A program made the translations under genes and the position numbers. A stretch of 20,270 nucleotides of DNA from a virus: the IMG/VR virus record IMGVR_UViG_3300012931_000892, one strand, 5' to 3'. This document shows positions 7,349 through 11,663 of this stretch, in pieces. The notes beneath the pieces were generated by a model. It made no database searches. It was not told the origin of the DNA and saw only the letters and a program-made list of their open reading frames with translations. The first letter of the stretch is position 1. Each line of letters opens with the position of its first letter.

Positions 7349-7543
7349 CTAGAAGTCGCGGTCGCCAATGATCAGCACCCAGCGCAGCATGTTCGGCTTG
7401 CCGGGCGGTTGGATCAGCAGCGCCGGAGCGCCTTGGAACTTGCCCTCCTGGAGCACATCCCAACGATCCGTTCCAGCCTCGCGAACCCTGTTTTTGCCTT
7501 TGAGACTCTTTGGAACCAACCTGACCGACACGACCTTTTCCAT
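7349..7543 (-). CDS. hypothetical small protein (64 aa)
   Basis: ORF starting 1 nt after the RNA ligase stop. No recognisable motif. Confidence 0.25.
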   Translation of the reverse strand: MEKVVSVRLVPKSLKGKNRVREAGTDRWDVLQEGKFQGAPALLIQPPGKPNMLRWVLIIGDRDF

Positions 7544-7544
7544 A

Positions 7545-8258
7545 CTACTTCCCCAGCTTGTTCTTGATGATGTCGGCTCGTGTGGAGAAGTGCGACCCAG
7601 CGATGAACCCGTGCCGCACCATTTTGAAACGATATATCACCCACCTACCGTCGCCGACCTTTATGTACGCGCCCTCGCGCAGATCCCTGGACGAGAAGGA
7701 CGACCGCTGCCGGAGCATAGCCGCCAGCTGTTCCGGGTCCTTGATCGGTCCGCTGTGGAGTTGTGGCACCACCTCGAACCCCGCAGCGACCAGGATGCCA
7801 CGCGCCTCGAGCGGATCAACGAACCGCGCGGAGCCGTAGTCGTAGAGGTCGAACGCCATGAAGAACGACGGCAGCAGGTCGTACTCCACGCTGTGGCAGG
7901 CCAGCAGCCATTCGCCGAACACGCTCGTGTCGGGCGCGAGCCGCTCCAGCTCGTCGAACAGGTGCGCGTTCTCGTAGTACCAATTCCAGATCGGGGAGAA
8001 CTGCTTCTTGGCCGCCGTCCTGGCCGTGTGGCCCTTCCGCAGGATGTGGTTCCTGTTTCGGATGATCGGTCCCTTGGCCATGCCGACATTCGCCCCGTCC
8101 ACCTTCTCCGTCACCTGGACGCGGTCGGATTCGAAGATGATCCGGCACTCGTCCTCGGTGGCGACCAGGTCGTCACGGGTGGCATTGGGATTCCACGGCA
8201 GATGCTGCGTCCTAGGGTAGTCGGGTAGGATGTCCCGTTCGTTGACGAATCTGGACAT
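7545..8258 (-). CDS. ATP-dependent RNA ligase (Rnl2/PF09414-like nucleotidyltransferase)
   Basis: 'YPRTQHLPW....VTEKVDGANVGM' matches the KYPRTxHL ... EKxDGxN adenylylation (KxDG) motif of this ligase family. ATG at 8256-8258, directly abutting the ParB-like stop. Confidence 0.6.
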   Translation of the reverse strand: MSRFVNERDILPDYPRTQHLPWNPNATRDDLVATEDECRIIFESDRVQVTEKVDGANVGMAKGPIIRNRNHILRKGHTARTAAKKQFSPIWNWYYENAHLFDELERLAPDTSVFGEWLLACHSVEYDLLPSFFMAFDLYDYGSARFVDPLEARGILVAAGFEVVPQLHSGPIKDPEQLAAMLRQRSSFSSRDLREGAYIKVGDGRWVIYRFKMVRHGFIAGSHFSTRADIIKNKLGK

Positions 8259-8675
8259 TTAGAACTCTGGAGCTTTCCTGGTTTTTCCCGTTAGGTAGTT
8301 CAGCGTGGACACGAGTCCGCTGTAGGATGCTGGTATGCGCCTGCGGCGCAGGATGGACACAGCGATCAGCCTGTGGTGTCCGTCGACCACTATCGGCCCG
8401 TAGAAATGACCGTTGTAGGTATCGTTGTCCAGGACGATGGCGTCTATCCTGCTGGGATTCTCGACGAAAAAGCGAATCCTGGCGATGTGCTGGCGGCGAG
8501 AGACGATGCGCTCTTTACTCCAGCGGATCGGCGTCTTGCGCGACGAATATCTGTAGAGGCTGCAGACAACCGTTTCCTCGTCGAGACCCAGGGTCACATA
8601 TGGATCATAGTAGTGAAGCAGGCGACCAACAAGCACCATATTGGTTTCCTGCGATATCTCATCTATGTGCTCCAT
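8259..8675 (-). CDS. ParB-like nuclease (ParB/Srx fold) domain protein
   Basis: 'GPIVVDGHHRLIAVSI' matches the DGxHR(L/R) ParB N-terminal domain motif. ATG at 8673-8675 with GGAG upstream. Confidence 0.5.
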   Translation of the reverse strand: MEHIDEISQETNMVLVGRLLHYYDPYVTLGLDEETVVCSLYRYSSRKTPIRWSKERIVSRRQHIARIRFFVENPSRIDAIVLDNDTYNGHFYGPIVVDGHHRLIAVSILRRRRIPASYSGLVSTLNYLTGKTRKAPEF

Positions 8676-9405: not shown

Positions 9406-10038
9406 TCACACAATCTCGTCTACCATTCCCAGTTTGAGAGCTTTGTGTGCGCCAAACCAGATGTCGTGTTTGAGGATCCCGTCCAACTTTTTCCGCTTGA
9501 TTTTGGTGTACTTGAGGTAGACATCCCGGATCTGCCGCATAAACGATTTGCTATTTTCCATGTCATCGAGGAGTTCCTCGTACTTGCCAAAGTGCCAGCC
9601 TGACAATTGATGGATTAGGATGTAGGCGCTAGCGTTGATAGTTCGCTTGGCAGCCACCATAAACGGGAACGTGGCCGCGCTGGCACACATCCCGTCAATG
9701 ACAGCGTGGACTGGGACAGGACACCGGCGCACGGCGTCCATGGCCGCCACGCCTGAAAAAACACCGCCTCCACCACTATGGATATGGAGGATGATCGGGA
9801 GCGGGTCGCCACCGTTCTCGATCGCCTGGGTGCGCTGCTTATTGGATAAGGTGTGAAGAGTGTCGATCAGGACTGCGACCGTCTTGGTCATGATGGGGGC
9901 GTAGAAGTAGATGTGGTTCCCCACCAGTCGGATCTCGGAGTCGTCGTCGTGATCAGCGGATCCCCACAGCGGCTGGTCGTTTTCCTTCTCTTCTTCTTCC
10001 TTGGTTTGCCTGCCCCTTTTCCGGATGTCGGCCATCAT
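9406..10038 (-). CDS. clpP: ClpP-family (peptidase S14) serine protease
   Basis: 'ILHIHSGGGGVFSGVAAMDAV', 'VIDGMCASAATFPFMVAAKR' (catalytic Ser), 'ILIHQLSG' (His) and 'IRDVYLKY' (Asp) align with the ClpP catalytic triad regions. ATGATG at 10038 is preceded by GAGGAG. The longer N-terminal extension in the supplied ORF is probably untranslated. Confidence 0.65.
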   Translation of the reverse strand: MMADIRKRGRQTKEEEEKENDQPLWGSADHDDDSEIRLVGNHIYFYAPIMTKTVAVLIDTLHTLSNKQRTQAIENGGDPLPIILHIHSGGGGVFSGVAAMDAVRRCPVPVHAVIDGMCASAATFPFMVAAKRTINASAYILIHQLSGWHFGKYEELLDDMENSKSFMRQIRDVYLKYTKIKRKKLDGILKHDIWFGAHKALKLGMVDEIV

Positions 10039-10048
10039 TACTTTCTCC

Positions 10049-10330
10049 TCATTGTCGAAAAAGGCCCTCGATGCTGATTTGGTTGATGCCGATGATGGCA
10101 TCCCGCTCATCACCTCGTTCCACCATTATTCCACCAATTAAACGCAGCGCAGGATCTCCCCCCGGAATGTGACGGTCAATCCTGTCGCCAGGCACATATA
10201 TACCAATGAGCCCGATACCATCTCCCATTGGTTCATATACAGCCAAGCGTAGTTCGAGCAAGAATGCTGCATCCCATGGTCCTAAGGACAGGAGAGCTCC
10301 ATGTCTTCGGTAGCTATTGGTCGCGTCCAT
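10049..10330 (-). CDS. hypothetical small protein (93 aa)
   Basis: ATG at 10328-10330 with AAGGA upstream. Its stop sits inside the ClpP RBS. Confidence 0.35.
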   Translation of the reverse strand: MDATNSYRRHGALLSLGPWDAAFLLELRLAVYEPMGDGIGLIGIYVPGDRIDRHIPGGDPALRLIGGIMVERGDERDAIIGINQISIEGLFRQ

Positions 10331-11663
10331 GCTGTTCCTTATCTTTCTCCGCTAAAACGGCATAGATATTGCCCCAAATTTTCTCGATGAGGAACACGTG
10401 CGACTTGTCGCCATCCCCCTTCTTGCTCAGGTGATGGGCCAGTTCATGGATCATGGTGATGAGCGTCTTGACCATGTCAGACAGCACGGCTTTCGACACC
10501 ATGATCATTTTCCCGTTCCAGAGGCCCCACCGATCATCGGAACGGAACGATACGACATCCAGGATCTCCATCGGCACCCTGTGGCCTGCGCGACCAATAA
10601 GATCAACGGCCTTCTCCAGGTTTGCCTGCTCCTCCTGGGAAAGGTCCGACCAAGAATGCCGCACGACGATCTCCTCCCCCGCTTTCCTCTTGATCCCCTC
10701 AATGCCATCCTCTATGCCCATGAGGGTCTGAAGCAGCTTGGCCAATGTGGCAGGTAGAACGATACCCTTCTTTCCGAAGTGGTCAAGATCCTTGGACTCC
10801 ATGATGTTGGCTACCGGTACCGCTTCGCTGCCGAAGGTCCTGGTAAATTCGGAGACCAGTGCCGTCCTGGCCTCGTCGGACAAGTAAGACATCGAGTAGG
10901 ACGAGAGATCATTCGTGTCTGGTGCATCCTTACTCAGAAGGTCGTACAGCTTCCCCACCAGCGTCGGCCTGATTGATACAGCTTTCGCCCATATCGTAGC
11001 CAGACGCCAACCGAGATCGTACTGCGAGATGACCTTACGGTCCCTGTCGGTCGGGGCGTTGAACAGGTCGTATCCCGCCATGAGCTTAGGATCGTACTGG
11101 ACGAAAATGCCTTTCACAAATACCTTTCCCGACATGGATGGGTCGAGCAGCAGGCTACCCCACTCATCCACAGCCACCTTGTCGAAGTCGTCCCGAAGGA
11201 AGAGGAAGTTGGACCGCATCTCGGCCCACTTGGCGGACGAGATCTTGTCCACCTCCACAATGATGCCGCCGCAATCTTTGGCCTCGGAGATATCGAACGC
11301 CAACACTTCGACCTGGAACTTCTTCGAGCGGATGAGAATCGGTTTCCAGATCTCCTTGCCAGAACGGATCACGACCTTGTGCCCAGCACGCGTTAGACAC
11401 AGACTGGACAATTTGATTCCTTCTCCAAATTGTCCAATCATATCTTGACGTCCCACCTTGGTTGTGTGACCAAACAAAAGCGCCTCATGGGACAGCGTTA
11501 CGCCTGCGTTCTCAATCTTTAGGACATGACCGTTATGCCAGATTTTCATCGGAGCCTTGAACTCCGTTTCAGCATCCTTGGCATTCTGAATAAACTCCCG
11601 AATACCTTGCTGCATGCCCCAATCCGGCAGGTATGTAGTCTTGACCGTCAATTCAATGCGCAT
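10314..11663 (-). CDS. GHKL-type ATPase (Bergerat fold) protein with a C-terminal HExxH zinc-metallopeptidase-like motif
   Basis: The N-terminus 'IREFIQNAKDAETE' matches the Bergerat motif I (ExxxNxxDA). 'ENAGVTLS' matches the G1 box. 'GQFGEGIKLSS' matches the G2 box. Near the C-terminus, 'LITMIHELAHHLSKKGDGDKSH' contains HELAH plus a downstream His. Start taken at ATG 11661-11663 (GAGGA upstream) rather than the TTG at 11684. Confidence 0.4.
   Translation of the reverse strand: MRIELTVKTTYLPDWGMQQGIREFIQNAKDAETEFKAPMKIWHNGHVLKIENAGVTLSHEALLFGHTTKVGRQDMIGQFGEGIKLSSLCLTRAGHKVVIRSGKEIWKPILIRSKKFQVEVLAFDISEAKDCGGIIVEVDKISSAKWAEMRSNFLFLRDDFDKVAVDEWGSLLLDPSMSGKVFVKGIFVQYDPKLMAGYDLFNAPTDRDRKVISQYDLGWRLATIWAKAVSIRPTLVGKLYDLLSKDAPDTNDLSSYSMSYLSDEARTALVSEFTRTFGSEAVPVANIMESKDLDHFGKKGIVLPATLAKLLQTLMGIEDGIEGIKRKAGEEIVVRHSWSDLSQEEQANLEKAVDLIGRAGHRVPMEILDVVSFRSDDRWGLWNGKMIMVSKAVLSDMVKTLITMIHELAHHLSKKGDGDKSHVFLIEKIWGNIYAVLAEKDKEQHGRDQ

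Follow-up and report, generated by a model that had tools for sequence, protein, structure and literature searches.

What a virus would do with a single protein that begins as a GHKL-type ATPase and ends in a zinc-protease site, and whether that protein works together with the ClpP-family serine protease encoded beside it, is the question raised by the IMG/VR virus record IMGVR_UViG_3300012931_000892; the window analysed is a stretch of 20,270 nucleotides (nt) of this record. The protein, a product of 449 amino acids (aa) referred to here as GHKL-zincin, is modelled as a GHKL nucleotide-binding domain with a transducer-like domain, followed by a linker and then by a Wss1/SprT-type zinc metalloprotease domain, all in one chain. 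Residue numbers are those of GHKL-zincin and nt positions are those of the window, unless a numbered locus (L) is named.

Domain architecture and catalytic residues

GHKL-zincin, a 93-aa open reading frame (ORF) and clpP are three co-directional genes on the minus strand, each lying where the original prediction had placed it (Table 1). The start codon of GHKL-zincin is the ATG at 11663; it has the ribosome-binding site GAGGA 6 nt upstream, and the N-termini of the homologues in the alignment agree with it. A Pfam search with the protein itself returned no match, and neither the protein nor the family profile found a significant match among PDB sequences; the fold was therefore tested through structure.

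The AlphaFold2 model, built on a 36-homologue alignment, has a pLDDT (predicted local distance difference test score) of 87.2, with disorder confined to the ATP-lid region (residues 65-71). The N-terminus of the model forms a Bergerat α/β sandwich, and Hsp90-family chains come at the top of a Foldseek search of the PDB (E 2.6e-8); the assignment of the N-terminus to the GHKL ATPases is borne out by these results, and a portal or structural identity of the protein is ruled out by them. The C-terminal domain has a zincin fold in which the HExxH motif lies inside the active-site helix (residues 397-412) and which also features a long C-terminal helix; its nearest solved structures are the DNA-protein-crosslink proteases Wss1 and Spartan. 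The concern that the motif might sit in a non-catalytic helix is thereby removed; by chance, 0.024 HExxH motifs would be expected in a protein of its length and composition.

Sequence profiles point the same way, weakly but consistently. The sacsin-type ATP-binding domain of NCBIfam matches the 449-aa protein at 1.7e-6 with 28 bits (cut-off 50), HATPase_c and HATPase_c_3 each match 14 of 36 diverse family members (best HATPase_c_3 match 1.2e-7), and the Pfam SprT-like model matches four of the 36 (best E 2.2e-4, under the 25.6-bit cut-off). No curated GHKL model of Pfam or NCBIfam is above threshold for the 449-aa protein, and no Pfam SprT-like or WLM model is above threshold for the family in the 36 members scanned. 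The sole PADLOC match of the 449-aa protein is to TmtA, is weak (5.4e-4) and falls in the GHKL region; therefore no membership of a defence system can be claimed.

Conservation was counted over 66 non-redundant homologues of roughly 20-100% identity. In the N box E23, N27 and D30 are kept in 65, 63 and 65 of the homologues, respectively; G77, G80, E81 and G82 of the G2 box are kept in all 66, R209 of the RDR loop in 65, and the HExxH motif in 62-63. The invariant or near-invariant positions are R22, E23, N27, D30, G54, G65, K69, G77, G80, E81, G82, K84 and R92 in the N-terminal part and Y198, R207, D208, R209, H406, E407, H410 and D417 in the remainder; from this pattern, the catalytic residues at both ends of the protein are under strong purifying selection. 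The loop D206-R207-D208-R209-K210 of the transducer-like domain sits where transducer domains carry the Lys or Arg that senses phosphate.

GHKL-zincin shares the Bergerat fold and a second β/α domain with the Hsp90 family (Hsp90, TRAP1, GRP94 and HtpG), MutL, GyrB/ParE/topoisomerase (topo) II, MORC, SMCHD1 and the sacsin repeat. The likeness to Hsp90 is closest: the N box (RExxxNxxDA), the lid Lys and the G2 box (IGxFGxG) are nearly letter-identical, and the conserved Arg loop lies where Arg380 of Hsp90, or the Lys of MutL and GyrB, would be expected. In contrast to these ATPases GHKL-zincin is without the C-terminal dimerisation domain of Hsp90 and without nuclease, Toprim or CW domains; most members of its family have Asn, Ser or Thr where the G1 Asp would be, and it carries a protease domain, which was seen on no characterised GHKL protein.

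The N box, the G1-like box, the G2 box and the HExxH motif are where the original prediction described them, with one correction: the G1 box, with Asn52, is non-canonical. The column of the G1 Asp holds Asn in 37 homologues, Asp in 22, Ser in four and Thr in three; Asn52 is invariant across the 36-member clade of the 449-aa protein, which departs from the canonical DxGxG, and its column aligns with DFGPG of T4 rIIA and with DDGPG of the Moorella phage homologue. Apart from the G1 Asp the nucleotide pocket is conserved; Asn52 within an otherwise conserved pocket may denote an altered nucleotide specificity.

The zinc site of Wss1 has the spacing HExxHx5H. When compared to Wss1/SprT/Spartan and to the minigluzincins (proabylysin and selecase), the ligand spacing of GHKL-zincin is HExxHx6D(x4H); the candidates for the third ligand are D417 at +7 (62 of 66 homologues), H422 at +12 (45 of 66) and E427 (24 of 66), and there is no His at +6. 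GHKL-zincin also differs from Wss1 and Spartan in having no SIM, VIM, SHP or UBZ motifs and no DNA-binding domains of the Spartan type, and it carries its own fused ATPase, whereas proteases of the Wss1/Spartan type recruit Cdc48/p97.

Table 1. Features of GHKL-zincin and its two downstream neighbours in the window, with the short family forms of cultured phages (positions within the locus named)
Feature	Position	Strand	Description
GHKL-zincin fusion gene	10314..11663	-	449 aa; stop codon 10314-10316
Bergerat-fold (GHKL) nucleotide-binding domain	11199..11663	-	residues 1-155; lid residue K69
N box REFIQNAKDA	11571-11600	-	R22-E23-x3-N27-x2-D30
Atypical G1 box IENAGVT	11496..11516	-	N52-x-G54; Asn52 in place of the adenine-contacting Asp of DxGxG
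G2 box IGQFGEGIK	11412-11438	-	G77-x2-G80-E81-G82-x-K84
Transducer-like β/α domain	10968..11198	-	residues 156-232; β-rich
D206-R207-D208-R209-K210 loop	11034-11048	-	near-invariant; end of the transducer-like domain, before a long helix
α/β linker domain	10671..10967	-	residues 233-331; from the secondary structure of the AlphaFold2 model
Wss1/SprT-like minimal zincin domain	10317..10670	-	residues 332-449
HELAH (HExxH)	10434-10448	-	residues 406-410; followed by DGDKSH
D417...H422	10398-10415	-	candidate third zinc ligands
93-aa acidic protein ORF	10049..10330	-	17-nt overlap with the end of the GHKL-zincin gene; ends 10 nt before ClpP
Stand-alone ClpP-family serine protease	9406..10038	-	210 aa; PF00574 8.8e-20, 71.8 bits against a cut-off of 20.2
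ClpP triad	Ser120 9679-9681; His143 9610-9612; Asp192 9463-9465	-	aligned with solved ClpPs
Short cultured-phage forms	L083 2992-4140 (phage 4MG gp173); L084 2968-4050; L010 3995-5125		360-382 aa

Distribution and gene neighbourhoods of the family

An exhaustive hidden Markov model (HMM) search recovered 5,330 clusters (at 50% identity) with a threshold of E ≤ 1e-3, of which 1,623 also pass E ≤ 1e-30, and among the matches listed nearly all are 430-465 aa in length. A word-indexed search gave 412 relatives at E ≤ 0.001; the 120 of these that were listed are almost all 434-464 aa with at least 96% of the query matched, and none of the 120 carries a functional name from any source. Some homologues bear the precomputed Pfam tag PF25856.2, which a Pfam search did not reproduce and of which no mention was found in the literature. 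At least 64 GHKL-zincin loci are found in IMG/VR, on contigs of 8-442 kb; prokaryotes contribute five matches in 185,579 species (one genome per species), all on contigs of metagenome-assembled genomes (MAGs). Within the collections searched, the family hardly occurs outside phage contigs. The original prediction had pointed to both phage and defence-island neighbourhoods as places to look, and it is on phage contigs that the architecture is found; a cellular origin, as a prophage or defence-island gene, is rejected on the count of prokaryotic matches. The source of the 449-aa protein is very probably a huge (jumbo) phage, as its closest relatives are encoded on contigs of 300-440 kb and a vault-like gene of the window matches uncultured phage genomes of 462-735 kb.

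PHROG 6077, a family of 'unknown function', matches residues 3-303 of the protein (4.5e-54), and literature searches aimed at the GHKL-zincin fusion found no paper describing it. The view that the combination is not a described family holds up: the fusion is apparently undescribed, a new architecture made from known domains.

Cultured phages carry mostly a shorter form. The GHKL, transducer and linker core (the N-terminal ~300 residues) is present in 110 phage records, of which some are annotated as 'histidine kinase-like ATPase' and one as 'RIIA lysis inhibitor'; a single protein in 50,697 phage records, CDS0173 of Moorella phage MTATph1, covers 80% or more of the query, and in this protein the HExxH is present. 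The short forms (360-382 aa, 25-33% identity) retain the core, end directly before the β-sheet of the zincin and have no HExxH; their carriers include E. coli phage 4MG (gp173), Pseudomonas phages Lucjan, PaMx11 and Ab18, and Vequintavirinae. Because these cultured-phage members stop before the zincin β-sheet, the protease domain is an optional module within the family.

The neighbours of GHKL-zincin elsewhere are often replication and repair genes (helicases, Ku, ligases, SSB and RNase H). For the 150 large ORFs lying closest to GHKL-zincin, a Pfam census gives DUF932, UvrD, ADP-ribosylglycohydrolase, RtcB, Ku, SNF2, ArdA, DnaB and RNase H; neither virion genes nor ClpP occur among the 25 families listed in it. 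The surroundings of GHKL-zincin are thus genes of replication, repair, RNA repair and anti-restriction, and not virion genes. All-against-all clustering of the neighbours found no widely shared partner, the best being DUF932 in eight loci, and the family has no obligatory partner gene. In several relatives from huge phages a second GHKL paralogue of 486-505 aa with weak HATPase_c matches lies immediately upstream of GHKL-zincin (L007 4533-5993, and also L023, L024 and L027); it is absent from the window, and in those relatives the two proteins may form a heteromeric pair.

The window is part of an 83-kb metagenomic contig of densely packed small genes on the same strand, and no structural genes were found in the window. 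The region downstream of clpP encodes a 138-aa protein bearing the ParB/sulfiredoxin-like motif 'VVDGHHRLIA' and having weak matches only (8259-8675, minus strand), an RNA ligase (7545-8258, minus strand; PF09414, 2.6e-22) and an NMNAT-like enzyme of the cytidylyltransferase fold (5889-6557, minus strand); these three genes form an RNA-repair and NAD-type accessory cluster. An HNH/endonuclease VII-type gene (6608-7315, plus strand; phrog_1035, 7e-36) is the lone plus-strand gene in the minus-strand array and looks like a homing-endonuclease insertion.

The window also encodes an 856-aa protein like the major vault protein (MVP) at 2064-4634 (minus strand), which matches the MVP shoulder at 2.1e-26 and Vault_3 at 4.4e-11 and shares 45% identity, across 78% of its length, with proteins of the uncultured huge-phage genomes LR756500, LR756501 and LR756503 (462-735 kb). 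An SPFH/Band-7 protein (1-1029, minus strand) lies ~1 kb further along the same strand. Viral MVPs have been reported previously in a 2023 bioRxiv preprint (10.1101/2023.11.10.566534).

Proposed mechanism and its alternatives

Proteolysis by Wss1 and Spartan depends on DNA and involves cooperation with the ATP-driven segregase Cdc48/p97. By analogy, GHKL-zincin is tentatively proposed, at a confidence somewhat short of even, to be a single-chain nucleotide-regulated protease in which a clamp captures a client for the fused protease, cutting a host protein or a nucleic-acid-bound protein early in infection. Nucleotide binding would close the lid and dimerise the N-terminal domains into a clamp, as in other modules of the GHKL and transducer type; the clamp would capture a client protein, alone or bound to DNA or RNA, and would present it to, or unmask it for, the Wss1-like protease at the C-terminus. 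Early in infection the phage would in this way cut a specific host or nucleic-acid-bound protein, leading to host takeover or counter-defence. Delivery of a client by the clamp to the fused protease is suggested because of the precedents of the GHKL and transducer clamps and of Wss1/Spartan; the GHKL and S5 modules of MutL, topo II and MORC are ATP-operated dimerising clamps (PMC2292703).

Several points weigh against this proposal. GHKL-zincin has no recognisable DNA-binding domain, and Foldseek ranks Hsp90, which acts on protein clients, above the DNA-acting GHKL proteins; therefore the link to nucleic acid comes from gene context only. Since the short forms of cultured phages have no zincin domain, the core function of the family does not depend on proteolysis. 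In Hsp90 and GyrB an Asp-to-Asn change at the G1 box abolishes ATP binding; as 44 of the 66 homologues have Asn, Ser or Thr at this position, gating by ATP may have changed in GHKL-zincin or have disappeared. The third zinc ligand is putative, with D417 a better candidate than H422 or E427 as judged by conservation. Dimerisation through the N-terminus is predicted by analogy and the structural model is a monomer; the substrate and the activity are likewise predictions, from sequence and model only.

A bolder form of the proposal, which is considered rather unlikely, would make GHKL-zincin a new class of energy-dependent protease, in which a GHKL clamp, not an AAA+ ring, selects substrates for or gates a Wss1-like protease and by which phages would, on a wide scale, destroy a host defence factor or a DNA-bound protein. 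On this reading the invariant Asn in the G1 motif could signal recognition of some nucleotide besides ATP, such as a defence signalling nucleotide. Lon and FtsH likewise combine NTPase and protease in a single chain, and FtsH is also an HExxH zincin, but the comparison is an analogy only: GHKL-zincin has a GHKL clamp in place of an AAA+ ring unfoldase, and nothing in it points to a degradation chamber or to processive unfolding.

The closeness of the C-terminal domain to Wss1 and Spartan, its closest solved structures, could alternatively place the protein in phage genome maintenance: a Wss1/Spartan-like protease, loaded by the GHKL clamp, would clear proteins trapped on phage DNA (topoisomerase or HUH adducts, or crosslinks) and serve phage replication instead of attacking the host. 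The frequent replication and repair neighbours fit this explanation, as does the classical action of GHKL and S5 modules on DNA (PMC2292703). However, a DNA-binding module is not recognisable, the Pfam SprT-like matches are sub-threshold, and the minimal zincin core that was matched also occurs in proteases that do not act on DNA (minigluzincins and Zincin_1); the patchy distribution and the protease-less short forms are a better fit to an accessory or conflict gene than to core repair, and the explanation is regarded as doubtful.

Equally doubtful is a role as an rIIA-like anti-exclusion factor, in which the GHKL, transducer and linker core would sense or block host abortive infection as rIIA does against Rex, and the zincin would be an optional add-on for auto-processing or for inactivating one host factor. 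The rIIA and rIIA-like proteins are phage-specific, with a GHKL ATPase at the N-terminus and a C-terminal region that varies (PMC7824862). In a Foldseek search of BFVD dozens of RIIA proteins, the nearest named viral structural neighbours, come directly after the family members (E 1e-7 to 1e-5); the matches cover the GHKL part, and it is to this part that the similarity is restricted. The order of the motifs aligns with that of T4 rIIA, and a motif-by-motif alignment is consistent with a relationship, but hhalign finds no significant similarity to this protein (probability 2.6%, E 0.018, 68 columns). Unlike GHKL-zincin, rIIA proteins are 620-1,050 aa in length, have the canonical DxGxG and carry no zincin.

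The zincin-less short forms common in cultured phages and the second GHKL paralogue directly upstream in some phages are also in line with anti-exclusion, as is a 144-aa protein with a Phage_T4_rIIB domain (PF26926) at L082 3283-3717, four genes upstream of a 58%-identical GHKL-zincin orthologue. No gene like the partner rIIB is present in the window, and the 449-aa protein falls outside the T4 rIIA family; as the function of rIIA is itself obscure, the anti-exclusion reading relabels the problem and does not explain it.

The remaining alternatives involve ClpP. The 210-aa ClpP passes PF00574 as a member of peptidase family S14 and has the Ser-His-Asp triad; it has a charged N-terminal extension, and the canonical N-terminal axial-loop segment is without a match. 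Its homologues number 481 and are about 205 aa in length. Its best profile matches are to ClpP-related head-maturation families (phrog_94, 4.3e-38; NF045542 over the whole profile, 95 bits), and it lies under the 120-bit cut-off of NF045542 and under every other ClpP or head-maturation cut-off of NCBIfam. In contrast to head-maturation proteases it is neither fused nor adjacent to scaffold or capsid genes, and no portal, scaffold or capsid gene lies beside ClpP in the window or in the contexts of five relatives. A 47%-identical ClpP is located in a replication region, and on a 189-kb phage contig (L080) a 44%-identical ClpP (7001-7615) has a 775-aa ClpA/B/C-type AAA+ ATPase (3481-5808) two genes upstream, which looks like a complete phage-borne Clp protease system. 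The original prediction that ClpP is probably not a prohead protease is supported by the lack of virion genes alongside and by this relative near an AAA+ ATPase; with the caveat that the best, sub-cut-off profile matches are to head-maturation families, it is plausible, not proven.

The 93-aa ORF is, from its sequence conservation, a real gene (65% identity in L002, 39% in L003 and 38% in L082); a homologue search with the protein recovered the query alone, and its single-sequence AlphaFold2 model, with a pLDDT of 50, was not used. An adaptor of the ClpS kind was among the roles considered for the protein. A 94-aa DUF7352 gene that precedes the ClpP homologue in L081 was considered as a counterpart and rejected, being unrelated in sequence. 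Promoter and terminator scans around the three genes were at background level.

Adjacency was examined by tblastn of ClpP and the 93-aa protein against all loci collected. Both genes stand beside GHKL-zincin only in the window, L002, L003/L011 and L082, the GHKL-zincin proteins of which are 56-77% identical to the 449-aa protein; ClpP is absent within 6 kb in ~60 other viral loci, and ClpP homologues (44-47% identity) occur without a GHKL-zincin gene or the 93-aa gene. Within this sub-clade an upstream gene is likewise syntenic, which attributes the adjacency to shared ancestry. ClpP is a lineage-specific neighbour of GHKL-zincin, not its partner; the 93-aa gene and ClpP are probably a separate lineage-specific proteolytic cassette outside the GHKL-zincin mechanism, with ClpP dependent on an unfoldase.

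A morphogenetic chaperone-protease is improbable. Here the Hsp90-like module would fold or hold virion proteins, and the zincin and ClpP would process them in capsid assembly; the head-maturation matches of ClpP, the tight packing of the three genes in this sub-clade, and one structural neighbour in BFVD annotated as a structural protein, from a Sulfolobales filamentous virus, are in its favour. Jumbo phages scatter their structural genes, so the absence of an adjacent capsid gene is weak counter-evidence. Against this, the NF045542 score is under its cut-off, no portal, scaffold or capsid gene lies near GHKL-zincin in ~60 loci or near ClpP in five contexts, the adjacency is restricted to one sub-clade, and the ClpP relative near a Clp AAA+ ATPase points to an unfoldase-dependent protease.

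The least probable alternative, and one given very little credence, is the module suggested in the original prediction, in which GHKL-zincin and ClpP would form one joint two-protease effector, considered here with an adaptor role for the 93-aa protein: the genes of the trio adjoin one another in four related genomes with gaps of at most 10 nt or overlaps, and the trio is flanked by gaps of 92 nt upstream and 48 nt downstream, but the suggestion fails on the confinement of this arrangement to one syntenic sub-clade, on the ~60 loci without a nearby ClpP and on the ClpPs that occur without the other two genes.

Significance for phage biology and annotation

With 1,623 clusters in the stringent HMM search, the GHKL-zincin family is among the larger uncharacterised protein families of phages, and the label 'GHKL ATPase-Wss1/SprT-like metalloprotease fusion' can be given to thousands of phage-metagenome entries now called 'hypothetical proteins'. 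The adjacent ClpP of this lineage should not be given a prohead-protease label by default.

If GHKL-zincin is a GHKL-driven protease as tentatively proposed, it would extend ATP-dependent proteolytic machines past the AAA+ systems. Its nearest named relative is rIIA, a classic phage gene of still obscure biochemical function, and the joining of an rIIA-like GHKL module to an identifiable effector provides a direct route to testing what such modules do. Should the bolder reading as a new protease class be true, the family would offer a first mechanistic way into what is sensed by GHKL modules of the rIIA type, because it is taken to be a sister group of rIIA.

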